From assembly GCA_038279365.1 (NCBI GenBank), contig JAYODI010000019.1:1443-65442 (forward strand): a stretch of 64,000 bases of DNA, in the 5' to 3' direction. Shown one piece after another: positions 968 to 14,295 of the stretch. Within the stretch, counting starts at the first letter, position 1. Each line of letters starts with the position of its first letter. The DNA comes from Candidatus Latescibacterota bacterium. Lineage in GTDB: Bacteria; Latescibacterota; UBA2968. The notes beneath the pieces are model-generated. The model searched no databases, was not told where the DNA came from, and saw only the letters and a program-made list of their open reading frames with translations. The translations under genes and the position numbers were made by a program.

Positions 968-2389
968 GTGATGTTACAGGTGTCTTTTATGAAATTATTT
1001 TGGGTTTTATTGATCGCAATGATGCCGTCGGTTGGATTTGCACAGCAGGACTGGAGAGTTGGGCCAGATATTAGTCTGCACATTACCGTTCCAAATGGTG
1101 GGCAAACACCTTGCGTCGTTGATTTTGAAGACTTTATCGCTTTTGTACAGGCTTATGGTTCTACATCCGACGATCAAAATTACAACTTTCGTGCGGATAC
1201 AAATCAAGATGGCACTGTCAATTTCCCAGATTTTATTGCATTTGCTGGGCAGTTTGGCAAGTCTATGGCTGGCACTTCTGATGAGTGTCGCAGGCCTTTT
1301 CGTACTCATGTTCAGATTTCTGGTGAGGTGATCAAAGCAGGACGGCCATTTGAAAATGTGTGGATAGACGCGGTGCCTGTTGATGGTGTGGGTTCTGTGC
1401 AGTTGGAAAAAACAGATTCACTGGGTGTTTTTAAACATGTGGGTTTGGCACGTGGTAAGTATGCCTTTGTGCCCAATCAATTTGGATATGTGTTTACGCC
1501 CGATACATTGTGGACCACGGTTGAAGATACTGCTGCTGTGCTTCCGACGGTTGAAGGTGCACTGTCATTTGGATTGATGGACATACAAGTGATACGCGAC
1601 AGCGTTCGTGTGCCCAATGTGCGGGTGTCTGTTCTAAAGAGTGTGGCTGGGCAGCAGGCCGAAGGACCGTGGACGGGGATGACAGATCCCAGTGGTGTGT
1701 CGGCCATTCGCATTCCTGTGTCTGATGGTGCATCTGATCTGATGGGTACCTATGTTGTGAGTGTGATTGATACCACAAAGGGAGATTTGTTGGATGCCTG
1801 GATGAGTGTGCCCATTCAAACCGCAGATACCAGGCGCTTGGTCTTGGATATTGGGCATGAGGCGTCTTATGTTCCCGAACGTGAATATTTTTTTTATGAT
1901 TGGAATCAACAAAAGGTGGCGTGTGAGGTATCAGATAGCCGCCTTCGGATAAGATTTTATGACGATGTTGATGTGAATGAAAAAATGATGTTATTGGATC
2001 GGTTGGGGCTTCAAGATAAAGGTGACGCTGTATTTGAGTTGAGGCACGATAAAGGGCGATTTGCGGTGCTTGAAAAAATGTATCAATTGAAACGCAGTGG
2101 TCTTGTTCGATCTGTGACTCCTGAATTGCATTTTGGCGATGATCGTGTTTATTGGCCCGATCATGTGGTGATCCGTTTTAAAGATGAGGCTTCGGAAGAC
2201 GATATTGCGACTTTTCTACAAGATGTTGGCGCTTCTCTCATTCAGATCTCGGCAGGCAATCATGAGGTGCTGTTTGCAGATTTGTTGTCGCAAGATGTTT
2301 TTGAGGTGTGCGAAAAATACCGAACACATCCACTCATTGCATATATGTACCCCGATCTGAGAGGGCGATATCGGTTGCTGAAACCGTAA
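968..2389 (+). CDS. Secreted multidomain protein: signal peptide, dockerin/EF-hand-like module, carboxypeptidase-regulatory-like beta domain(s), two C-terminal S8-propeptide-like repeats
   Basis: MKLFWVLL...GFA signal (true start perhaps ATG at 989); DFEDFIAFVQAYG...DTNQDGTVNFPDFIAFAGQFG; repeats RLRIRFYDDV... and VVIRFKDEASEDDIATF...YPD. Confidence 0.6.
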   Translation: MMLQVSFMKLFWVLLIAMMPSVGFAQQDWRVGPDISLHITVPNGGQTPCVVDFEDFIAFVQAYGSTSDDQNYNFRADTNQDGTVNFPDFIAFAGQFGKSMAGTSDECRRPFRTHVQISGEVIKAGRPFENVWIDAVPVDGVGSVQLEKTDSLGVFKHVGLARGKYAFVPNQFGYVFTPDTLWTTVEDTAAVLPTVEGALSFGLMDIQVIRDSVRVPNVRVSVLKSVAGQQAEGPWTGMTDPSGVSAIRIPVSDGASDLMGTYVVSVIDTTKGDLLDAWMSVPIQTADTRRLVLDIGHEASYVPEREYFFYDWNQQKVACEVSDSRLRIRFYDDVDVNEKMMLLDRLGLQDKGDAVFELRHDKGRFAVLEKMYQLKRSGLVRSVTPELHFGDDRVYWPDHVVIRFKDEASEDDIATFLQDVGASLIQISAGNHEVLFADLLSQDVFEVCEKYRTHPLIAYMYPDLRGRYRLLKP

Positions 2390-2402
2390 AGGAGCCAAGT
2401 GT

Positions 2403-2987
2403 ATGTTTTATTTGAAATGGATTGGAGCTTGTTTTTTAGCGGCCCATATGGGTGTGTTGTTGATTTGGCCCGTGATGAACGAGGCGAGTTATCAGTATGG
2501 CAGTTTGTATTTGGAGTTGATGATGGGTGGGGCAACTGGGGTGGTGATGGCCATTGCGTTGTATTGGGTGATGCGTGATTTGATTTTGTCTTTTGGGGCG
2601 TGGGTGGGGTGGACGGCTTTGGCTCATGGTTTTGGCGCATTTTTAGGTGCGTATGTGATGCAAGGGTTGCATGGATATATATCGAGAGAGTGGATGATGG
2701 TGTGGGGGATATATGTGCCCAAAGGATTGATGACGGGATTGTTCGTTGGTATTTGGGTGGGCATAGTGCAGAGTATGATGTTGCCTTTGTTGGATGCAAA
2801 ACGGTGGATCGTGGCCAATGTGTTGGGATTTGGTGTTGGTTATGTTTTGTCGCATGCTGTTGGAAATTGGTTGATAGATTTGCCACAGAGTATGTCTGTT
2901 TATTTTCCAGGATTTATGGGTATTTGTGTGGGCAGTGCAACACTGTATGTGTTTTTGAGATCTGAATTTGGTGATTTGCGTGGGTGA
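2403..2987 (+). CDS. Hypothetical multi-pass membrane protein, Gly/Trp-rich
   Basis: About six hydrophobic segments; AGGAG RBS upstream; 13 bp after the previous gene. Confidence 0.7.
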   Translation: MFYLKWIGACFLAAHMGVLLIWPVMNEASYQYGSLYLELMMGGATGVVMAIALYWVMRDLILSFGAWVGWTALAHGFGAFLGAYVMQGLHGYISREWMMVWGIYVPKGLMTGLFVGIWVGIVQSMMLPLLDAKRWIVANVLGFGVGYVLSHAVGNWLIDLPQSMSVYFPGFMGICVGSATLYVFLRSEFGDLRG

Positions 2988-3061
2988 TGTGGATGTTTGG
3001 AGGTGTGTGATAATGAAATATTTATGTGTCATTTTTACGATTTAAAGAAATTGGAGACGAT

Positions 3062-3460
3062 ATGTTTGATGTTGAATTTTTTGACCGGTGGGAAGATGTT
3101 GCCCATGATGTGAAGGCTGTGTTTGATGAACACGGCTATGTGGTGTTGCGTGGGTTTTTATCGGCAGATGAGGTGGCAGAAGTTCGGCGTGAGTTGGATC
3201 GATATATTGCTGAAGTGATTCCGAATATTCCGGTGGATTATGTTTTTTATGAAAATAAAAATGATCCTTCCACATTGAAGCAGTTGCCCAATATGCAAGA
3301 ACACGATGCTTATTTTGAACATCTGTTGCGTGGTGATACGCGGTTTCATCGGTTGGCCAAGTTGCTTGTTGGAGGCGTTGTAGGGCGCAACTTGCAATTG
3401 CTACGCAAACCGCCTGCTGTGGGGTTGCCCACGCCACCGCATCAGGATGGGTATTATTAA
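3062..3460 (+). pseudogene. Truncated phytanoyl-CoA dioxygenase (PhyH)-family gene
   Basis: FDEHGYVVLRGFLS...KPPAVGLPTPPHQDGYY*: stops right after the HxD motif, so the rest of the jelly-roll and the distal His are missing. GGAG RBS precedes ATG at 3062. Confidence 0.8.
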
Positions 3461-5604
3461 CCCAGCAGGTGGGCTTTATCGCGATTGATGTGAAGTTGAA
3501 GGTTGGTTTTGGAGACTTTAAGCGGGTTGTCTATATAAATGGTGCCTGGCGTGTTTTGAATGATGTCTTCAACATCTTTGGCCAGTTTGGATAATGTTTC
3601 GAGGTTATCACCTTGAATGCGAATATAAATAGGCGGGTCTGACGACGGACCTTGTTTAAATTCCCAAACGCGAATGCGACCTGTTGGAAATGGGTCAAAT
3701 TGGATACGCAAGTCATCAATAATTTGTTCGACCGTACGGCCTTTATTTAGATCGACCATTGCAAATATTTGCCCCACGTGAGGTTTGTTTTCAGTGAGGT
3801 TCATGTTGTAATAAACTTGTGGGTTGCCACGTCCTGCATTGGCCATCACTTTTGTTATTTCAGGTTGGTTGAGCAGGGTTTTTTCAATGGTTTTGACAAC
3901 ACGGTCTGTGGTGGGCAAATCGGTTCCGCGTGGCATGTCGATGTCGATCATGAGCATGGGTTTTTCTGCTTTTGGAAAAAAGCTCACACCCACCAAAGGA
4001 AACAGGCTAAGGCTCAAAATAAAAATACATGTGGTCAAAAAGATGGTGATGCGATGATGTCGCAAACACCATTGTAAAATGGGTTGATATTGGTGTGCCA
4101 CAAAGCGTTCTAAAAGGTGGTGGGTTTTGGGTTCGCGATACGATTTGCTCATGAGCTGACTGGCCAGCAAGGGCGTGAGTGTGAGCGCAACAAAAAGGGA
4201 TGCCGAAAGGGTGTAGATAACGGTAATGGGCAAGCTACGAATAAAGTCGCCTGTGGAGCCACTGAGAAAAATGATGGGCACAAAGGCCAATACGGTGGTA
4301 AGCGTGGAACTGGCAATGGGCAGTGCGATGAGGTTCACGCCTTTTATGGCCGCGTCTCTACCCGATGCGCCTTCGCGTTGGTAACGTACCACCGATTCGA
4401 CCACCACAATGGCATTGTCGACCAACAGTCCGAGGGCAATGATAAAACCCGTAATGGTGATTTGGTGGATACCATATCCGGTGAGATAAACAAAGCCAAT
4501 AACAAAGGATGCAGGTATGGCAATCATAACGATAAAAGAAGCGCGTGCACCGACCACCAAAAAGATGACAATGCCCACCAATAAGATACCCTGTCCCAAA
4601 CTGCTTGTGAAGGTATGGATGCGTGATGCAACACTTTCGGCTTGGTCAAAACCGATGGTTAATTGCATGCCCGGTGGCATTTCTTTTTGGAGTGTTTCTA
4701 AGCGTTCTCGAATGGTTTCTACAATAAGAAAGATGTCGGAGTTTTTCTTTTGTTTGATGCCAATAAACAAACATCGTTGGCCATTAAAGCGCGTTTTATA
4801 AAGGTGTTCTCGATATCCAAATTCTACGGTGGCCACGTCTGAGAGGTAAAGAACAGTGCCTTCTTTTGTTTGTAAGACGGTGCGACGAATGTCGTTGAGG
4901 TCGGTATACAAACCCGATGTTTTGATGGTAAACCGTTGTGTGCCCACAGAAATTGCGCCACCGGGTATGGCGGTGTTGTGTGTGTGAATGGCGTGGGTTA
5001 CATGAGAAATGCCCAGTCCATAATGTCCTAAACGTTCCAAATCTATGTTGATTTCAACTATTTCATCAGGGTCTCCCAAAATTTCAACTTGTTTGACATT
5101 GGATACCCGTTCGAGATTGCGTTTGATGTGTTGGGCTTCGTCGTAGAGTTCATGGTAAGATGCATTTTCAGATATAAGAGCCAGTTGCATAATGCGTGTG
5201 TTACTTGTAGACCATTGTATGACATTGAGCGCTGCAATATGAGGCGGCAAACGATCTCTTACTTTGTTTACTTGCTCGCGTACTTCGCGATATTTTTCGT
5301 CAGAATCGACATAGGATTCAAATTCAACGGAGATTTTGGTTGTGCCATCTTCCATGCGTGTGGCAATGTGTTTGATGTCTTCAATTTCGTTTACGGCTTC
5401 TTCGAGAGGTTCAACAATTTGGCGTTCGAGGTCTATGGGCGATGTGCCAGGGTAATAAACAATGATAGTGGTACCCGCAGGATCTAAGGGCGGGTCTTCA
5501 GAGTAGGGCATGGTAGATATGGCACCCAAACCCAAAATGAGGAAGGCGGCGTATTGAATGATGGTAAAGCGATAGTTGTCTATGGCAACGCGCGTAAATT
5601 TCAT
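3457..5604 (-). pseudogene. C-terminally truncated RND (AcrB/AcrD/AcrF family) efflux permease
   Basis: LGLLVDNAIVVVE motif and FFPKAE; 715 aa ending inside the second periplasmic domain (LHINRDKAHLLG*), lacking the last TM helices of ~1000-aa RND proteins. Confidence 0.85.
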
Positions 5605-5704: not shown

Positions 5705-6724
5705 TTATTTTGTGAGGGTCACGCGGCTCTGGTCGCTTAAGTAAGATGCCCCATCTGTAACGACATGTTCGCCAAGTTCAAGTCCATCTTTGATGAGCAC
5801 CATGTTGTTTTGCAGTTTATCGAGGGTGACGGCTCGACGGTAGACGATATTGTCTTTAAAGACATAAACAAACCCGCGATCGTTATCGGCATCAATGAGT
5901 GATTCGATGGGAATGATCCATCTGTTTTGACTGTGTTGTGTATATAGGTGTGCATGACCAATCATGCCAGGCAAGAGGGTGTGCGGGGTTACAAAGGCCA
6001 ATTCAATTTCGTACAAACCTGTTTGGAGCGTTGCCATGGCCGCTATTTTTTCAACGGTAGCAGGTATTTGGGTGTTGGGGTGTGCATCAAATGCAACAGT
6101 GGCAGAATCTCCTGGTGCGAGGTGTAAAACGTTGCGATCCGTAATGCCTGCTTGTAAAATGGCGATGTCTGTTTCAGAGGCAAATGAGAACAGTGGCATG
6201 CCTGCACGGATCATTTCTTCTGCTTCGCCCCATTTTTGGAGAATCCGTCCATTTGTAGGCGCGATCAAGACTGTGTGTGCAAGGTTGTATGTGGCAATGT
6301 CGCGTGCAGATCGTGCTGCTTCGAGCGTGACTTGAGCACCTAAAAGTTGGGTTTGAGTGACAACTTGGTCTTTTTGAAGCGATTGTGCTTTTTGATGGTC
6401 TTGATAGGCTTTGTGGTATGCAGCCATTGCTTGGGCATAATGGGCGCGTATTTCTGTTTGATCCAGCACGGCCAATGTGTCTTGGGCCTTTACATTATCG
6501 CCTTCCTGTACTGCAATGTGTTTGATGAGGCCATCTACTTTAAAGCTAAGTTGTGTTTTTTGCCGGGTTATTGTTTTGCCTGTGGTATAAACGATGGTGC
6601 GTATCTGTTGTGCCTTAACGGGCGTGATTTTAACGGGTGTGGTTGTTGTCTGGGGAGGGGGGGCAGGTGTTTTTGCCGTACATCCAATGATGAATAAGCA
6701 CAAAAAAAAGAAATGAGATTTCAT
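5705..6724 (-). CDS. RND efflux periplasmic adaptor (membrane fusion protein), lipoprotein
   Basis: Lipobox IIGC; LSFKVDGLIKHIAVQEGDNVK and LIAPTNGRI lipoyl-like motifs; C-terminal GLELGEHVVTDGA. Confidence 0.9.
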   Translation of the reverse strand: MKSHFFFLCLFIIGCTAKTPAPPPQTTTTPVKITPVKAQQIRTIVYTTGKTITRQKTQLSFKVDGLIKHIAVQEGDNVKAQDTLAVLDQTEIRAHYAQAMAAYHKAYQDHQKAQSLQKDQVVTQTQLLGAQVTLEAARSARDIATYNLAHTVLIAPTNGRILQKWGEAEEMIRAGMPLFSFASETDIAILQAGITDRNVLHLAPGDSATVAFDAHPNTQIPATVEKIAAMATLQTGLYEIELAFVTPHTLLPGMIGHAHLYTQHSQNRWIIPIESLIDADNDRGFVYVFKDNIVYRRAVTLDKLQNNMVLIKDGLELGEHVVTDGASYLSDQSRVTLTK

Positions 6725-6754
6725 GGGAAAACCATTGTGTGTTGAAAACGCGTA

Positions 6755-7384
6755 TTAGGACAGTTGAGATAAAAGGGCTTTTACATAAACGACGGTAAGT
6801 ATAATGGCACCCACGGCAAAAATGGCATACCAAATTCCGGTGAGTTTGCGTATGGGAATGCTTGAAACCATGGCCACGGCCAAGAGGGCATAAAGACCAA
6901 AGAGGATTTGTTTAAGCGTTTCTTCTGGCAGGATAAAATGCAGGGTGAAAATGGCAGGAATAAACAACGCGGCATACGTGACTGGCAGACCCGTATAGTA
7001 ATTTTTCTGATCATTAGGAGTTAGGCCTATATGGTTGAAATAGGCCAACCGCAAGGCATTTACGCCCATATAAGCGATGAGCAAGGCGATGGATAAGGTA
7101 TCTTTGAGACCAAAACAATAAGCAAAGATTGCTGGGGCAAACCCAAAGGCGCACATATCGACCAGGCTGTCGAGGTCGGGGCCTGCGGCAGATGCTTCGG
7201 GCGTGCGTTTGGCGCGTTTGGCAAAAAAACCATCAAAGAGATCGATAAGGCCAGAATACATCATGAATAATGCCGCAACATAAAACTGCCCTTGCATGGC
7301 AAACATCACCACACCAAAACTAAAAAAAAGCCCTGACAGGGTCAGCACATTTACGGGATCGAGTTGACGCAGAATGGGAGACAT
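6755..7384 (-). CDS. CDP-alcohol phosphatidyltransferase (PssA-like)
   Basis: DLFDGFFAKR...GPDLDSLVD signature; LRLAYFN and YTGLPVT. Confidence 0.85.
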   Translation of the reverse strand: MSPILRQLDPVNVLTLSGLFFSFGVVMFAMQGQFYVAALFMMYSGLIDLFDGFFAKRAKRTPEASAAGPDLDSLVDMCAFGFAPAIFAYCFGLKDTLSIALLIAYMGVNALRLAYFNHIGLTPNDQKNYYTGLPVTYAALFIPAIFTLHFILPEETLKQILFGLYALLAVAMVSSIPIRKLTGIWYAIFAVGAIILTVVYVKALLSQLS

Positions 7385-7421
7385 GGCAATTCAAAAGGAA
7401 AAGGGTAACAAATAGCGGTGA

Positions 7422-8324
7422 TTATATTCTCTGTTTGCCAATTTGTGTACCGGTTTGGACTTGTACTTCGGTATGAGCTTGTGTGTGATGGATCAGATCT
7501 GGGTCGAAGATAATTTTGTCGGGTTCAAAAAGCAAAACCAATGTGGACCCCCCAAACTGGAAGTAGCCTTTTTCTTGACCTCTTCGCACAGGGCCGGGTG
7601 AATGGGTTTGTATGATGCGCCCAACGGCAAAACCTGCGACATCTATGTATGCAAATCGCCCAAATTTTTCGGTTTCGATATAGGTGACCACACGTTTGTT
7701 GTGGGCAAAAAGATCGGGTTTGATAGACAATGCCAGCGGATTTACCAGATAATATCGGCCATCAATATCTTTTGGGGGGCTTGCTTGACCTTCTACTGGA
7801 AAGTGAAATCGGTGGTAATCGTAAGGGGCTAAGCGCACAATACAGGCGGCTCCCCCGTGAAAAGATCGGGCTTCTGATTCGGAGGCCAGCAATGCAGAAA
7901 TATCGACATAAGACCCTTTGATGGGCAATTGGGTGCGTTCGTCGAGTTGGGGGTAGACCAATATTTTGCCATCTGCTGGCGCGCAAAATATCGATGGATC
8001 CTCTACAAAAGGACGTGCCCCGGGTTTGAGCTTGCGTGAAAAAAATGCATTGAGGGTGGGATATTGATGGATCGGTTTTTCGACTTCGGTGAGATCAATT
8101 TGAAAGTTTGTGGCAAATTTTGACACATCTTGTTGTGATGCCGAACGGTCTACCCATTTGCCATAGAGATGACAATACCATTGTCTGTTAAACAATGCAT
8201 TGATGATGTTGCGAACGATTTTAGAACGTGCAACCCAATATTGAATTTTGGGATTGGAGACACGTTCTTTGACCAATTTGCCCGTGAGGCGATCAAGATA
8301 ATGGGGAATCTGATATAAAGACAC
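7422..8324 (-). CDS. psd: Phosphatidylserine decarboxylase proenzyme
   Basis: FFSRKLKPGARP, PADG, RLAPYDYHRFHFP and GYFQFGGST self-cleavage motif. Confidence 0.92.
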   Translation of the reverse strand: MSLYQIPHYLDRLTGKLVKERVSNPKIQYWVARSKIVRNIINALFNRQWYCHLYGKWVDRSASQQDVSKFATNFQIDLTEVEKPIHQYPTLNAFFSRKLKPGARPFVEDPSIFCAPADGKILVYPQLDERTQLPIKGSYVDISALLASESEARSFHGGAACIVRLAPYDYHRFHFPVEGQASPPKDIDGRYYLVNPLALSIKPDLFAHNKRVVTYIETEKFGRFAYIDVAGFAVGRIIQTHSPGPVRRGQEKGYFQFGGSTLVLLFEPDKIIFDPDLIHHTQAHTEVQVQTGTQIGKQRI

Positions 8325-8326
8325 AT

Positions 8327-9247
8327 TTAAACTTTCATGGAAAGCCGAACAAAGGCATAAAACATGGGAGCAATAAACAAAAGGCCATCGAAGCGGTCTA
8401 AGATGCCCCCCATACCTGGTAAGGTTTTGCTAAAGTCTTTGATGTTGGCTTCTCGCTTGAGCGAGGAGGCCACCAAATCGCCTAAGAGTGCCAATATACC
8501 AATAAGTGTTGCACCCAAGAGCACTTGACCTAATGACCAAGTGGGAATGAGAAAGCGTATGGCATAGCCGACACTGAGACAAATGACAATGCCCCCAACC
8601 GCACCTTCGTAGGTTTTTTGGGGGCTGATGGCCGGGCACAAAAGATGTTTGCCCAAAAGCCGGCCAAAACCCACAGCAAAACCATCGTGACAATTGATAA
8701 GCACAATTAAAAATGCAAAGGCGCCGTAATCCAATTGGACCAGCAAGAGCAAGTGTGTAAGTGGCACACCAATTAGCACAGTGCCCAACCCCACCGTGAG
8801 CATGGCATGCATGGGGACGGGGTGTTTGGTAATGATCATGGGCAATGTGACGGCAGTCCAGGCGGCAGCCCCTATGCCCAAAAAGGCACCAAAGGCCGTA
8901 TTGGTAAGCCCACCCAATATGCCCAATGTGCCAATAATGGGATAAAGACCAAACATAGAAACAGAGCCATATTTATTTTCGATACATCGAATGAGTTCTT
9001 GCCAGCCTAAAAATGCGATTATCAAAGAAGGGATCAACAAACCCCATGCGCCAAATGCACCGCAAATGAGCATGAGATATCCGATGCCGATCATCACTGC
9101 AAGACGCACCCAATCGTTTTTGTAGGTGGCTTTGTCTGATCGGCGTAATAGGCCTAAGGCAATGATAAACACCGCACCTGCACCTACGACCCACATCAAG
9201 ATGTTTAGTAAGGGATATAAAAGGGGATGTATAAAATCGAAACTCAT
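8327..9247 (-). CDS. Phosphatidate cytidylyltransferase (CdsA-like)
   Basis: ISPQKTYEG, GDLVASSLKR, KDFSKTLPGMGGILDRFD. Confidence 0.9.
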   Translation of the reverse strand: MSFDFIHPLLYPLLNILMWVVGAGAVFIIALGLLRRSDKATYKNDWVRLAVMIGIGYLMLICGAFGAWGLLIPSLIIAFLGWQELIRCIENKYGSVSMFGLYPIIGTLGILGGLTNTAFGAFLGIGAAAWTAVTLPMIITKHPVPMHAMLTVGLGTVLIGVPLTHLLLLVQLDYGAFAFLIVLINCHDGFAVGFGRLLGKHLLCPAISPQKTYEGAVGGIVICLSVGYAIRFLIPTWSLGQVLLGATLIGILALLGDLVASSLKREANIKDFSKTLPGMGGILDRFDGLLFIAPMFYAFVRLSMKV

Positions 9248-10353
9248 CCGTGCAAAACCTTTGGTTCAGGAGTGGAATGGGCTTGGTGAGACGGGTGTGC
9301 CATTTGATAAAGAAATTTAAAATGGGCTTTAAGCGCTGCCCATACGGTGGGATATGCGTGATAGGTAATGCCATACTTTTCGCATTGTTGGCGAACAATT
9401 TTGCTGATGGCTGGATAGTGAATGTGGCAAATATCGGGATAGAGATGGTGTTCGATTTGGAAATTAAGACCGCCAAAACACCAAGCTGCCCATCTGTTGT
9501 TGGGAGCAAAATCGGCCGTGGTTTCGACCTGATGAATGGCCCACGCATTTTGCATATGGCCATTTTGCATATTGGGTTTTGGAAAAACGGGGCCTTCCGT
9601 TGCATGGGCCAGTTGAAAAACCAAAGACAATGTGATGCCTAAAATGAGATGTATGATGACAAAAACGAGCAGAACGTGCCACACGGGATGAAAAAATAAT
9701 GGAATAACGAGACTGTATAAATAAACAAACGCTTTGGCCATAAAAAAAAGAACGGTTTCGTATGTGTTGGGTTTGCGTAACTGAACGGGACCTACCTTGC
9801 CTGCAAAAAAAGCGACATAGTCGCGGTATAAAAGCCAAAAAATGGTATGCAAGCTATAAAGCGGAATGGCGTAGAGGTGTTGGTAACGGTGGAATGGTTG
9901 CCAAGGTTGGTCTGGGCTCAATCGCATCAGGCCCGACGATTGTAAATCGCGGTCGTACTCATCTATGTTGGTGTAGGTATGATGTAGGAAGTTGTGTTTT
10001 TGACGCCATAAATAATTGCTGCCCCCCATGAGGTCGAGGGTGAATCCCATCAGCCAATTGAGTTTGGGGTTTTTGGCATAAGATCCGTGGGCACCATCGT
10101 GCATGATGTTGAAGCCGACCAGGTAGATGCTAAAAGCCATGCCTAACATAGATAAACCCACCCCCCAATAGGTGTTGGCATAAAATACCAGGTAGGTGTA
10201 AAAGGCAGCCGCAGAAAAAAGGATGACGCTGGTTTTTAAAAACATACGCCACGTGCCTGTTTTGGGCAGGTGCGTGTTTTCAAAATAGCGATCAACTTCT
10301 GTATTCAGGTCGGTTTGAAACTGGGATCGGGCTGGAAATTTGATGCGATTCAT
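9244..10353 (-). CDS. Membrane acyl-CoA/acyl-lipid desaturase
   Basis: Three His boxes HDGAH, HNFLHH, QIEHH; 4-bp overlap with the cdsA-like start. Confidence 0.92.
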   Translation of the reverse strand: MNRIKFPARSQFQTDLNTEVDRYFENTHLPKTGTWRMFLKTSVILFSAAAFYTYLVFYANTYWGVGLSMLGMAFSIYLVGFNIMHDGAHGSYAKNPKLNWLMGFTLDLMGGSNYLWRQKHNFLHHTYTNIDEYDRDLQSSGLMRLSPDQPWQPFHRYQHLYAIPLYSLHTIFWLLYRDYVAFFAGKVGPVQLRKPNTYETVLFFMAKAFVYLYSLVIPLFFHPVWHVLLVFVIIHLILGITLSLVFQLAHATEGPVFPKPNMQNGHMQNAWAIHQVETTADFAPNNRWAAWCFGGLNFQIEHHLYPDICHIHYPAISKIVRQQCEKYGITYHAYPTVWAALKAHFKFLYQMAHPSHQAHSTPEPKVLHG

Positions 10354-10361
10354 AGCGGGTA

Positions 10362-10390
10362 ATCATACTGTGATATTCAGTAAAAGTCAA
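10362..10390 (-). promoter_or_regulatory. Sigma70-type promoter of the desaturase operon
   Basis: Minus strand TTGACT-17 bp-TATGAT, ending 8 nt before the ATG at 10353. Confidence 0.7.
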
Positions 10391-10396
10391 TGTTTT

Positions 10397-10822
10397 TTAT
10401 GGGATTAGGTCTTTGATGTTTGAAATGTGGTAACAAGAGGGTGCGCCAGAATCAGAAATGTCTTTGCCTGTTAATTGGCCATGTGTCAGATATGTACGAT
10501 CCATTTGGGTTTGCGCCCAGTTGAGAATGGTATCTAAGAGGGGTATTGAAACGCCAACGATATCGGCGATGCCTCTTAAAACGACCAGTCCGTGTGGAAT
10601 GTCTTCAAGGAAAAAACGACTGCTCCAATCGGGTAGCCATCCATTTTTTTGTTGGATTATAGGGGGGTGAATACCCGCATAAGCTCGATGGGTGGCAATG
10701 GTGCTTTGAAGCGTTGATGGATCTTGCCTGGCTTGGCCATAGTTGTATATCAGGCCTTGTTGGAGGGGAAAAACAAAAGGCAGGTGAAGACACGTGCTTA
10801 GGCACTTGCAGGTGATCGGCAA
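10397..10822 (-). pseudogene. C-terminal remnant of an NAD/NADP octopine/nopaline (opine) dehydrogenase
   Basis: THRAYAGI.PP...PDWSSRFFLEDIPHGLVVLRGIADIVGVSIPLLDTILNWAQ matches the helical domain; no Rossmann domain and no room for one before the ppc stop at 10899. Confidence 0.75.
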
Positions 10823-10898: not shown

Positions 10899-13616
10899 CT
10901 ATCCCGTATTTTGAAGACCTTCTGCAATGCCGTTTACGGTGGCCAAAAGGGCATCAAAAATTTCTTCATCTTGGCGATCTGTGTCACGCCATCGGCGAAG
11001 CAAATCGACTTGCAAGAGGCTCATAGGATCAACATAGGGGTTTCGCAACCGAATGGCTCTTTGAAGGGTGGGATCATCGTCGAGCAGTTGTTCGTTGTTT
11101 TTAAGGTGTAAAATATTGTGAACGGTCTGTTGGTATTCGTCTTGGATGAATTGGAAAATTTCTTGCCCAGAATCGCCCGCCAATTGGGCATAATAAGAAC
11201 CAATTTCCATGTCGGTTTTGGCCAAAACCATTTCGATGTCTTCGAGAAAAGAACGCAAAAAGGGGTTTTGATTGACGACCTCAGAAACGTGTTCTTCGCC
11301 GTGTGTGGTAATGGCCTCTTGAAGGCCAGTGCCCAAGCCATACCAACCCGGTAAAATTTGACGGCTTTGCGTCCAAGAAAAAACCCATGGAATGGCACGC
11401 AAGTCCTGAATACCGTTTTGACTGCGACGCGATGCGGGGCGTGATCCTATTTGCAAGCGTTCGATCACGTCTATGGGTGTGGCATGGCGAAAGTAGTGAA
11501 AAAAATGAGGGTGTTCATAGACGAGTTTGCGATAGGTTTGGCGGCTTTTTTGTGCCATGGTTTCCATGACAACATGAGCTGCATCGTTGTGATGTGTGGA
11601 TTCTTTAACAACGGCTGTGGCTTGCATCACTGCGCCTGTCATTTGTTCGAGCTCGCGTATGGCAATGCCTCGCAAGCCATATTTGGCATTGATGATTTCG
11701 CCTTGTTCAGTTACGCGCAGACGCCCCCGCACGGTGCCGTGTGGGGCCGATAAGATGGCGCGTTCGAGTTTGCCGCCACCTCGGCTGACGGTGCCGCCTC
11801 GTCCATGAAAAATGGTGAGTTCGACATTGTGCTTTTTCATAATGTCTACGAGTGCGGCTTCGGTTTTGTGCAATGCCCAACGTGCGGCAAAGATGCCTCC
11901 ATCTTTGTTGCTGTCGGAATAGCCGATCATCACAATTTGGCGATTGTTGCGGCTTTGAATGTGTTTTTTATAAACGGGGTTGTTGAGCAACGCATCCATA
12001 ATTTGAGGGGCATTATTGAGGTCTTCTACGGTTTCAAACAAAGGGGCAATGTCTAAGGATATGGATTTGTCGCCTTGGTTGACCCCGCCCCATTTGGCCA
12101 ATAAAAGAACGGTGTAAATGTCATCGACATTTTGGGTCATGCTGATGATGAAGGGACCAATGGCGCTGGGGCCAAATTGTTGGCGGCACTGTTGTATGGT
12201 GCGAAAGACCGATAAAGTACGCACTGTTTCTGCATCGTCGGTTTCTTGGGGAGGTGTATCTGATTCAAAGGTTTGTATAAGAGTTTTGGCACGTTCTTCG
12301 GCAGGGGTATCGGCCCAATCTTTTTTGCCCAACAATTCGGCCATTACCGCACGATGCAGGTGTGCATCTTGGCGTATGTCTAAGGTGGCCAAGTGAAAAC
12401 CAAAGGTTTCGGCACGGCGCAAGAGTCGTTTGACACCAAAAAGACCAGCCGATGTGCCTTTGTTGTCGCGCAGACTTTGTGCGATGTTGCGCAAATCGGT
12501 CACATAGTCGTTGGGATGTGTGTATTTGGTGCTTTCTTCTTTTTCTGTGGCCTGAAGCCGTGCGCGCATGAGGTGCAACAATACCCGATAGGGCATGTTT
12601 TGATGGCGTGCAGGTATGTTTTGAAAAACGGTTGGGAAAAGTGTTTTATAGGTGTTGATGGTGTCGTGAATGACGGGGTTTATGTTGACACGAGAGCGTG
12701 ATTGGCTCAGTTGACGATAGAGGGTGGCCATTTCTTGTTGGTAGTTTTTAAATATGAGCACGCGGTGTTGTGAGAGCGTGTGTTGAATGGTTTTGTGTGT
12801 AACGTTGGGGTTGCCATCCATGTCGCCACCTACCCAAGATGCAAAAGAAATGAGTGCTGGCAATTGCCATTCTTTATTGGGGGTGCCATACACTTGGTTG
12901 AGCGCATCTTCTAGGGCTTCGTAGAAGGCTGGAATAATAAGGTAGAGGATGTCTGTGATATAAAAAAGGACGTGTTCTAACTCATCATTGACGGTGCGTT
13001 TGGCGTCGGGATGTTCTTCGGTTTGCCAAAGGGATGTGATTTCGACCCGTATGCGTTCGATGAGGGCTTGGTCTTCACGTGGGATGTGGTAGGGGTTTAA
13101 TCGTTCGCCAAGTCTTTGGGCAATGCGCAGGTGTTTTTCAAGAATGGTTCTGCGTGTGGCTTCGGTTGGGTGAGCGGTGAAAACAGGTTCGATGTGGATG
13201 TTATTGAGCAAGGTTTGCATGTTGTCCATGCTCATGCCTGATTGAATAATTTTGCGAATGGCATCTTCAATGCCTCCGGGCTGTGGACCCGATCCAGACC
13301 GTAAATAGTCGCGACTGCGGCGAATGCGGTGAATTTTTTCGGCGAGATTGACCACTTGAAAATAAGTGGAAAATGCCCGTACGAGTTCACCTGCTTGGGT
13401 TGTATCTAAAGCGCTGACCAACTCTGATAAGTGTGTGTCTGAGTCGGGGTCTGATTCGCGGCGATGAATGGCGGCTACACGCGCTGATTCGACCTGATTA
13501 AAAAGTGTTTCACCACCTTGTTCTTCGAGCACTTCACCGACCAAGGTGCCTAAGAGCCGCACATCGTTGCGTAAACCGGCATCTTTGAGAGGAAAATAAA
13601 TTTCGCGTTTGTTCAT
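10899..13616 (-). CDS. ppc: Phosphoenolpyruvate carboxylase
   Basis: VFTAHPT, MIGYSDSNKDGG, FHGRGGTVSRGG, LRAIPW, C-terminal GLQNTG. Confidence 0.97.
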   Translation of the reverse strand: MNKREIYFPLKDAGLRNDVRLLGTLVGEVLEEQGGETLFNQVESARVAAIHRRESDPDSDTHLSELVSALDTTQAGELVRAFSTYFQVVNLAEKIHRIRRSRDYLRSGSGPQPGGIEDAIRKIIQSGMSMDNMQTLLNNIHIEPVFTAHPTEATRRTILEKHLRIAQRLGERLNPYHIPREDQALIERIRVEITSLWQTEEHPDAKRTVNDELEHVLFYITDILYLIIPAFYEALEDALNQVYGTPNKEWQLPALISFASWVGGDMDGNPNVTHKTIQHTLSQHRVLIFKNYQQEMATLYRQLSQSRSRVNINPVIHDTINTYKTLFPTVFQNIPARHQNMPYRVLLHLMRARLQATEKEESTKYTHPNDYVTDLRNIAQSLRDNKGTSAGLFGVKRLLRRAETFGFHLATLDIRQDAHLHRAVMAELLGKKDWADTPAEERAKTLIQTFESDTPPQETDDAETVRTLSVFRTIQQCRQQFGPSAIGPFIISMTQNVDDIYTVLLLAKWGGVNQGDKSISLDIAPLFETVEDLNNAPQIMDALLNNPVYKKHIQSRNNRQIVMIGYSDSNKDGGIFAARWALHKTEAALVDIMKKHNVELTIFHGRGGTVSRGGGKLERAILSAPHGTVRGRLRVTEQGEIINAKYGLRGIAIRELEQMTGAVMQATAVVKESTHHNDAAHVVMETMAQKSRQTYRKLVYEHPHFFHYFRHATPIDVIERLQIGSRPASRRSQNGIQDLRAIPWVFSWTQSRQILPGWYGLGTGLQEAITTHGEEHVSEVVNQNPFLRSFLEDIEMVLAKTDMEIGSYYAQLAGDSGQEIFQFIQDEYQQTVHNILHLKNNEQLLDDDPTLQRAIRLRNPYVDPMSLLQVDLLRRWRDTDRQDEEIFDALLATVNGIAEGLQNTG

Positions 13617-13632
13617 TTTTACCTACATCTTG

Positions 13633-14295
13633 TTATTTGCCAAAGACAGTAAACCAGTGTGGATCTGGGTCTGCTTTGAAGGTGAGCGTTTCTTGCGTAG
13701 TTGGATGATTAAATGTAAGGGATTGGGCGTGAAGTGCAAAGGAACGATTGGGATAGGGTTTGCGTGAGCCATATTTATAGTCACCAATAAGGGTATGTCC
13801 GATATGGGCAAATTGTACACGAATTTGATGGTGACGGCCTGTGTGGAGTTGAATTTCGAGCCAAGAGATGTTGTTGTGAAAGTCTATGCATTGGTAAGAA
13901 AGTTTGGCCAGTTGGCCTTGTGGTGGTTCAACAACACGGCTTTTGCTTTGACGGCGTGCAAGGTGATGTTCCAATTGCCCCGATTTTGGCAATTGGCCCT
14001 CGACCAAGGCCCAGTATTGTTTTTGAATGGTGCGGTTGCGAATTTGATCCGATAATCTGGCGGCGGCTTTGGAGGTGCGCGCAAAGACCATTACGCCAGA
14101 AACAGGTCTGTCGAGGCGGTGCACCAATCCTAAAAAAACCTGACCAGGTTTGTTGTATTTTTTTTTAAGATGGTCTTTGCCCCAGTCGAGCAAATTGGGG
14201 TCGCCTGTTTGATCGCCCTGCGTGAGCATGCCACTGGGTTTTCTGATGACGAGCAAGTGATTGTCTTCAAAGAGGATGGATATGTTCGATGACAA
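13633..14295 (-). CDS. RluA-family RNA pseudouridine synthase
   Basis: KPSG, VHRLDRPVSG, TGRHHQIRVQ, LHA motifs. Confidence 0.93.
   Translation of the reverse strand: MSSNISILFEDNHLLVIRKPSGMLTQGDQTGDPNLLDWGKDHLKKKYNKPGQVFLGLVHRLDRPVSGVMVFARTSKAAARLSDQIRNRTIQKQYWALVEGQLPKSGQLEHHLARRQSKSRVVEPPQGQLAKLSYQCIDFHNNISWLEIQLHTGRHHQIRVQFAHIGHTLIGDYKYGSRKPYPNRSFALHAQSLTFNHPTTQETLTFKADPDPHWFTVFGK

Follow-up and report, generated by a model that had tools for sequence, protein, structure and literature searches.

A probable accessory phospholipid gene cluster, partly decayed around its CdsA2-Psd-PssA2 core, in an uncultured estuarine bacterium of the Latescibacterota

Introduction

The canonical route to phosphatidylethanolamine (PE) runs through CdsA, a type II PssA and Psd, and catalytic residues that can be used for comparison have been set out for TmCdsA (PMC4083444, in part) and MjPSS (PMC8633023, in part). 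In Escherichia coli ynbABCD, an accessory CdsA (YnbB) and a CDP-alcohol transferase (YnbA) are encoded beside lipid-tailoring genes, and YnbB offers an earlier example of a CdsA paralogue that serves another purpose (MPIase; review PMC7018664, in part). In the Myxococcus elb (ElbD) ether-lipid cluster and in sponge VEPE-like clusters, the latter resembling those of nonribosomal peptide synthetases (NRPS), an adenylation-thiolation-reductase megasynthase is tied to a PE-type lipid (PMC9426513, in part). Here we analyze a 64,000-nucleotide stretch of contig C136 (JAYODI010000019.1), called the window below, from a Latescibacterota genome (G000; 6.0 Mb, 98.5% complete). The host is an uncultured estuarine bacterium, and the metagenome runs that best match the window come from estuary, marsh and marine sources. 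The subject is a cassette encoding a desaturase, a second CdsA (CdsA2), Psd, a second PssA (PssA2) and part of an RND exporter, which a first-pass annotation had read as an accessory pathway for a specialised exported lipid. We favor, with moderate confidence, the reading that an old accessory cluster, likely for a specialised serine/ethanolamine phospholipid, survives in the window with its CdsA2-Psd-PssA2 core intact and with exporter and tailoring genes broken or lost.

Results

Two accessory paralogues flank the only psd of the genome. Five minus-strand open reading frames are co-oriented as first annotated, with a 4-bp overlap followed by gaps of 2, 37 and 30 bp; the fifth encodes the RND adaptor only and the permease starts 100 bp further on. 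The genes and the element in front of them are as follows.

10362-10390, minus strand: sigma-70-like promoter TTGACT-17-TATGAT, both hexamers invariant in G000 and its congeners G001 and G002
9244-10353, minus strand: membrane fatty-acid desaturase (PF00487, 369 aa, dN/dS 0.13), loosely linked
8327-9247, minus strand: CdsA2, accessory CDP-lipid synthase (PF01148, 306 aa), in a clade of its own
7422-8324, minus strand: Psd of the long PRK00723-like type (PF02666, 300 aa, GGST motif), sole Psd of the genome
6755-7384, minus strand: PssA2, accessory CDP-alcohol phosphotransferase of PssA type (PF01066, 209 aa)
5705-6724, minus strand: RND periplasmic adaptor (MFP; 339 aa, over the TIGR01730 cut-off)
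3457-5604, minus strand: RND permease, cut at 715 aa and predicted to be non-functional

A housekeeping cdsA, expected by the first-pass annotation near uppS/dxr, is indeed present as a separate copy on contig C32 in the context uppS-cdsA-dxr-rseP; CdsA2 is thus neither the sole copy nor the one in that context. A second pssA scores over the TIGR00473 cut-off and is matched in 41 of 41 genomes searched. Since these separate copies exist, cdsA2 and pssA2 are true accessory paralogues. The same check gave the opposite outcome for psd, the cassette gene being the only PF02666 gene in G000. Psd occurs in 152 of 168 genomes of the phylum, mostly as one copy, and the long type is single-copy wherever present. 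All seven of 41 relatives without a long Psd carry, by coordinates, a psd directly before the housekeeping pssA; in one of these loci (G011) it is of the short PRK05305 type within truA-protease-psd-pssA-gatA, and the same locus in G000 has no psd. Because it is the sole copy and the ancestral short-psd locus stands without psd, the cassette's Psd does the housekeeping job, apparently in place of the ancestral enzyme, and the cassette is not self-contained as had been claimed. The proposed accessory pathway thus stands as far as cdsA2 and pssA2 are concerned, while psd is housekeeping and the special product is putative. Pairwise ratios of nonsynonymous to synonymous divergence (dN/dS) within the genus are 0.09-0.10 for cdsA2, 0.05-0.08 for pssA2 and 0.11-0.16 for psd, with 0.09-0.11 for rluA, ppc and rimO; by this measure cdsA2 and pssA2 are under purifying selection.

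The core enzymes retain the catalytic residues of their families. CdsA2 has the PF01148 domain, the SPxKxxEG loop and residues D188, K211, D257, K264, D284 and D287, equivalent to TmCdsA D144, K167, D219, K226, D246 and D249, and carries Met and Ala instead of the HGGxxDRxD histidine and Glu222. The PGMGG remarked on in the first-pass annotation is present and marks the clade, but no TmCdsA catalytic residue is named at that position in the relevant part of the source. The HGG histidine is found in 3 of 28 clade members versus 131 of 167 other CdsA proteins (15 of those without a pattern match); Ala at the E222 position is also found in 68 of the 167 and is not distinctive. PssA2 keeps the type II DxxDGxxAR..GxxxDxxxD motif, with D48, D51, G52, A55, G68, D72, D76 and R112 invariant across 44 rows; G000 has Lys in place of the motif Arg, and R60 is invariant. 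The equivalent of MjPSS Arg101 is present (R112) and that of Arg104 is Tyr115. From family membership, serine would be the acceptor. PssA2 scores 70.6 bits, short of the TIGR00473 cut-off of 107. The Psd self-cleavage motif GGST is intact (G258, G259, S260 and T261 invariant in 15 rows) and the protein has no hydrophobic segment. CdsA2, PssA2 and Psd each fall short of the corresponding NCBIfam equivalog cut-off (PRK11624, TIGR00473 and PRK00723, respectively).

CdsA2 is rare and always lies beside other core genes. In a quick tree it falls in a separate clade (SH-aLRT 99) that includes neither housekeeping CdsA nor E. coli YnbB. The clade has 13 representatives over 225 bits, and CdsA2 occurs in 6 of 168 Latescibacterota genomes (G000, G001, G002, G078, G092 and G152), directly adjoining PssA2 (five genomes) and/or Psd (four) in every one. 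A metagenome scan with the CdsA2 alignment returned mostly generic CdsA and one clade member, with pssA2 adjoining, among the best 80 loci listed; a scan of genome contigs gave two clade members among 25 loci. In samples beyond the genome set, CdsA2 and PssA2 homologues fall on same-size contigs in 6 of 29 cases (background mean 0.18, maximum 2) and CdsA2 and opine dehydrogenase homologues in 3 of 29 (background 0.10, maximum 2), both of which are indirect measures of linkage.

Fuller versions of the cluster in relatives add tailoring and export genes. The gene order is ppc, methyltransferase, opine dehydrogenase remnant, desaturase, cdsA2, psd, pssA2, MFP, RND and ABC in G001; ppc, methyltransferase, desaturase remnant, cdsA2, psd, pssA2 and ABC remnant in G002; and desaturase, cdsA2, pssA2, KAS, ABC/cNMP and a FAAL-like start fused to a desaturase tail (read by eye) in G078. 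G092 has cdsA2, pssA2, MFP, RND (one internal stop) and ABC; a divergent FAAL-ACP-KS lies where this contig ends, and the G092 psd adjoins a KR-ACP-reductase on another contig. G152 has PhyH, FAAL-ACP-LLM-MT-reductase, LarAH14/15/16, cdsA2, psd, opine dehydrogenase, MFP, RND and ABC. FAAL megasynthases thus flank the cluster in G152 and G092. The three congeners G000, G001 and G002 have each lost different peripheral genes and all keep cdsA2-psd-pssA2. The RND orthologue is present in 5 of 168 genomes, four times in the cluster and once, in G080, in an MFP-RND-ABC remnant split by an insertion sequence (IS), and the linkage noted earlier between the cassette and an RND exporter holds for cdsA2/pssA2 in three families of the class, but the pump itself is truncated in G000. 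The desaturase is not a firm member of the cassette: homologues occur in 13 of 168 genomes and are intact and adjacent in three, and 11 other desaturase loci inspected contained no cassette gene apart from one weak methyltransferase match. The O-methyltransferase of the cluster is found in 3 of 168 genomes. Chromosomal sites also differ (rluA-rimO, PhyH and others). The G152 megasynthase is a 1708-aa FAAL-ACP-luciferase-like-monooxygenase-methyltransferase-thioester-reductase (L215:682-7391), followed by the LarAH14/15/16 isomerase. The MsbA-like ABC exporter ends in a GGDEF domain in G001 or a cNMP-binding domain in G078 and G080 (L040:1729-4182; L120:495-2726; L259:13998-18355), and in G080 a cNMP-patatin gene follows it on the opposite strand.

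Several observations weigh against a dedicated pathway for a specialised lipid. The product is inferred, unlike gene content, paralogy, motifs, selection, deletions and the single-copy long Psd, and no substrate-specific residue was identified. A neighborhood search does place cdsA2 beside pssA2/psd in all six carriers, but the peripheral partner set differs in every carrier genome; the carriers are metagenome-assembled genomes of 88-99% completeness, three of them congeners. No PssA2 was found in G152 at E 1e-20, the G078 Psd is located away from cdsA2, and the G092 genes are split over two contigs. The RND search scored just four candidates per genome. PssA2 and opine dehydrogenase homologues share same-size contigs in 2 of 120 cases, which is not significant (a value reached by 5.8% of shifts). 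None of the clusters showed an acyltransferase, a kinase or an outer-membrane factor. No thioester-reductase domain scores over cut-off in G000, G001, G002 or G078, and since these four carriers are without one, the core persists without a megasynthase. Pairwise dN/dS also averages over the period that preceded the gene losses. A rival reading, possible though in our view doubtful, is an ordinary PE operon: a spare cdsA and pssA gathered around the sole psd would raise or control PE synthesis, and the exporter, desaturase and megasynthases would be neighbors with no part in it. The prevalence of single-copy Psd, the standard catalytic residues throughout, the survival of the core in G002 without any tailoring or export gene and the location of most desaturases elsewhere are all consistent with it. 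It leaves aside, however, the recurrence of the same rare RND, ABC exporter and opine dehydrogenase beside CdsA2 across families and sites, and the distinct, narrow clade of CdsA2.

The opine dehydrogenase raises the prospect of a modified head group. It is found in 2 of 168 genomes, both times in the cluster, plus a 30-codon remnant in G001; in G152 the gene comes immediately after psd, and in genus g1 its place is upstream of cdsA2. The protein is of the scallop octopine-dehydrogenase type, matching PDB 3c7a over its whole length (E 5e-78). Of 65 homologues, 57 retain the His212 motif and 51 have an N-terminal extension of more than 60 aa that looks helix-turn-helix (HTH)-like by eye. Arginine-binding Glu142 occurs in none of 63 pattern-matched homologues, which argues that the amine substrate is not arginine, and Tyr325 is mostly Phe. 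The bacterial scallop-type clade (P0331-P0395; L215:9365-10624) includes Methylobacter and Myxococcota records. The conserved His212 motif, the missing Glu142 and the position of the gene would fit an enzyme that joins the amine of PE or phosphatidylserine (PS) reductively with a 2-oxo acid such as pyruvate; the resulting N-(1-carboxyalkyl) phospholipid would be the exported product. We consider this quite improbable: the opine dehydrogenases compared are soluble and act on free amino acids, and the gene is absent from G078, G092 and G002 and a stub in G000 and G001. N-(1-carboxyethyl)-PE occurs in rumen ciliates; no paper on it was among the literature matches listed. An opine-headed phospholipid route, which we regard as distinctly unlikely, would be the first genetic one found in our literature search.

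Close PssA2 homologues outside the phylum suggest secondary metabolism as another possible context. Homologues of 50-59% identity are found in the cyanobacteria Symploca, Okeania, Planktothrix, Merismopedia and Cyanothece and the myxobacterium Minicystis (those in filamentous cyanobacteria and Minicystis being P0221, P0227, P0241, P0242, P0257 and P0307). They include the proteins of Planktothrix mougeotii (WP_193869603.1), P. paucivesiculata (WP_083622468.1) and Merismopedia glauca (WP_106288598.1). To our knowledge, cyanobacteria lack PS and PE. Neither a viral scan nor plasmid searches turned up a close PssA2 or Psd, and an Atlas search gave generic CDP-alcohol transferase clusters only. 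PE or PS could be just an intermediate, or the source of the head group, in making a secreted natural product on a FAAL-reductase chain, such as a lipid derivative of the alkyl- or acyl-ethanolamine or -serine kind. FAAL-ACP-reductase, LLM, MT and RND/ABC export are indeed typical of secondary metabolism, and the cyanobacterial and Minicystis homologues would also fit. We nonetheless hold this to be very improbable, since the clusters themselves showed neither a phospholipase nor a transferase, a patatin-family gene lying beside the G080 remnant only.

An archaeal-type ether lipid, made as CDP-archaeol, archaetidylserine and archaetidylethanolamine by CdsA2, PssA2 and Psd, is highly improbable. 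Archaeal-type ether-lipid genes have been described for FCB bacteria, where bacterial CdsA can substitute in the absence of CarS (PMC7852524, in part); 'Latescibacteria' are not mentioned in the main text of that paper. G000 encodes a GGGPS over the TIGR01769 cut-off (G000:C17:13886-14635; L119:6887-7636) and a DGGGPS-like UbiA protein below cut-off (G000:C196:12215-13126; L126:1420-2331), and the best match of PssA2 is to archaetidylserine synthase, far below cut-off. However, the housekeeping PssA outscores PssA2 on the archaeal model (131 vs 82 bits), CdsA2 scores 28 against 148 bits on the CarS model, and the linked tailoring genes are all fatty-acyl and none isoprenoid. The archaeol route is unlikely because GGGPS occurs in 40 of 41 relatives, against 3 of 41 for CdsA2.

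In G000 the exporter and two tailoring genes of the accessory cluster favored here are broken or missing. The features that document this decay, together with the conserved flank, are as follows.

3446-3460, no strand: deletion junction, about 4.0 kb gone relative to G001, from flank mapping and bridging contigs
3026-3460, plus strand: truncated PhyH-family gene in the flank, hit by the same deletion as the RND gene
10397-10822, minus strand: 3' stub of opine dehydrogenase (128 codons align), the full enzyme of the cluster having an N-terminal extension
10899-14295, minus strand: ppc and rluA, conserved upstream flank given for context, pathway membership not implied

The permease of 715 aa, against 1023 aa in G001, lies head-on to the truncated PhyH gene, matches ACR_tran positions 2-729 of 1021 and so falls short of the full domain (about 1020 aa, two membrane repeats). 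A crude scan found 6 hydrophobic segments versus 10 in the 1023-aa orthologue, and the pump is predicted to be non-functional. In the same place G001 has the 1023-aa RND gene, an 817-aa ABC/GGDEF exporter gene and a 262-aa PhyH gene, and the flanks of the G000 join lie about 4.0 kb apart there; the deletion takes the RND C-terminus, the ABC/GGDEF exporter gene and the PhyH C-terminus. An assembly artefact was considered and ruled out by contigs of runs X2 and X7, from two studies, that span the RND/PhyH join, run X2 and the possible source run belonging to one study. Because contigs of two studies bridge the join, the deletion is biological. The join at the opine dehydrogenase stub is likewise spanned in runs X2, X4 and X7; the 5' part of this gene and the upstream Mtf2-like O-methyltransferase gene are deleted in G000, the methyltransferase being present in G001 and G002. 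Export in this organism is not supported, with the RND truncated and the ABC gene deleted, and the G000 copy of the cluster is unsuitable for testing it. Elsewhere in G000 an intact paralogous MFP-RND pair (G000:C146:39713-45371), with an RND 42% identical to the G001 orthologue, precedes a 450-aa gene whose product, by eye, resembles an outer-membrane factor. Strain variation among runs includes a substitution cluster in phyH at about 3105-3232 and a 6-base insertion in the RND gene at 4495, each in three runs. Two genes (473 and 194 aa; window 968-2987) lie between rimO and phyH, with none there in G001 or G002; the 473-aa product has a dockerin-like repeat by eye and a weak Pfam match only.

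The promoter in front of the desaturase gene is conserved in the genus. The single promoter of the first-pass annotation finds support in its two hexamers, unchanged in all three genus species, even with the desaturase deleted (G002), at a synonymous divergence of these genes of about 1, but the scan by itself did no better than chance (14 sites vs 17.3 in shuffles). This promoter likely drives desaturase-cdsA2-psd-pssA2-mfp, as its position and conservation suggest. RNA data contribute 20 scattered short pieces in four runs, small-share contigs that do not show transcription.

The history of Psd is consistent with a cluster eroding around an indispensable gene. In a tree of 37 rows whose backbone is not resolved, Psd follows genera, with G152 grouping with its genus (99/97) and g1, g4 and g5 together (100/99). 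Four G152 congeners have PhyH-psd with nothing in between. In genus g5, 6 of 21 genomes match PssA2 weakly; at the four loci listed next, an open PssA2 frame of 171-175 aa directly follows psd.

L050:8117-8638, L051:1937-2464, L053:9352-9879 and L056:8007-8522: PssA2 of genus g5, directly after psd

Three aligned copies have lost the whole catalytic aspartate motif, and the four copies show dN/dS of 0.27-0.38 at dS up to 0.88. This g5 protein could be a pseudo-enzyme serving as an anchor for the long Psd, itself without a hydrophobic segment. The Psd tree by genus, the motif-less g5 PssA2 and the deletion scars all fit an old cluster eroding around an indispensable psd; we infer that the long Psd arrived as part of the cluster, took the place of the ancestral short psd and stayed while the rest eroded. 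A conceivable alternative history is repeated insertion beside a resident psd.

Discussion

Family chemistry suggests how the core might work. CdsA2 would activate a phosphatidate-like lipid with CTP to a CDP-lipid, PssA2 would exchange CMP for serine and Psd would decarboxylate the serine lipid to an ethanolamine head. In the fuller clusters, a megasynthase of the form FAAL-ACP-(KS...KR or LLM-MT)-thioester-reductase, yielding a long-chain alcohol or aldehyde, is predicted to supply or modify the chain, with other tailoring by the desaturase, KAS or O-methyltransferase; the opine dehydrogenase may modify an amine, and the MsbA-like ABC and MFP-RND exporters would move the product outward. That the full-cluster lipid is non-standard and exported is suggested by a second CdsA and PssA under selection together with recurring acyl-reducing megasynthases and exporters, a reading that also leans on the YnbB and elb precedents. 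Since G000 has no reductase megasynthase, intact pump or intact opine dehydrogenase, its remnant probably yields PE; most likely it provides PS decarboxylation and a second route to PE without dedicated export, perhaps favoring unsaturated PE species.

We found no account of this cluster in the literature searched, with subscription papers and supplements outside its scope. No paper united cytidylyltransferase, PS decarboxylase, desaturase, RND and gene cluster; the combination of CDP-alcohol transferase, cytidylyltransferase, polyketide synthase (PKS) and FAAL gave nothing relevant, and none combined most of FAAL, phosphatidylserine, thioester reductase and ether lipid. The available parts of PMC5987646, PMC10100984 and PMC12993501 contain nothing on it. 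If the predicted product exists, bacteria would have a further phospholipid class or exported lipid, recognisable by a defined gene signature of CdsA2, PssA2, long Psd, opine dehydrogenase or FAAL-reductase, and RND/ABC. It would also explain the close PssA homologues in cyanobacteria, which are not known to contain PS and PE; the homologues in cultured Planktothrix and Merismopedia make this testable. We give a low probability to the full version, an undescribed cluster family in Latescibacterota and probably other phyla with a FAAL-reductase backbone, a CdsA2/PssA2/Psd head, opine N-carboxyalkyl conversion and ABC plus RND export. Even without a new lipid, an accessory-cluster enzyme, Psd, would have displaced a housekeeping gene and anchored repeated cluster erosion.

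The locus is best compared with four described systems. It shares its three enzyme families and the TmCdsA and MjPSS catalytic residues (PMC4083444 and PMC8633023, each in part) with the canonical PE route, and differs in that the window CdsA and PssA are second copies in clades of their own, clustered with acyl-tailoring and export genes. Compared with ynbABCD, CdsA2 falls outside the YnbB group and is no closer to YnbB than to CdsA, the partners are a PssA-like protein and Psd, and the annotated clusters contain no YnbC or YnbD. ElbD is a reductase-synthetase-T-acyltransferase, whereas the megasynthases of the relatives have the architecture FAAL-ACP-LLM-MT-R or FAAL-ACP-KS...KR-ACP-R, in which an acyltransferase domain was not seen; the available part of PMC9426513 mentions no dedicated CdsA/PssA/Psd or RND for elb/VEPE, and G000 is without such a megasynthase. 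The Pecten maximus octopine dehydrogenase is matched over its whole length, with the His212 motif kept, by the cluster enzyme and its homologues, which differ in lacking Glu142, having mostly Phe for Tyr325 and mostly carrying the N-terminal extension, G000 retaining the stub only. By these comparisons the locus is a real, conserved and apparently undescribed variant of accessory CdsA/CDP-alcohol-transferase lipid clusters, decayed in G000.

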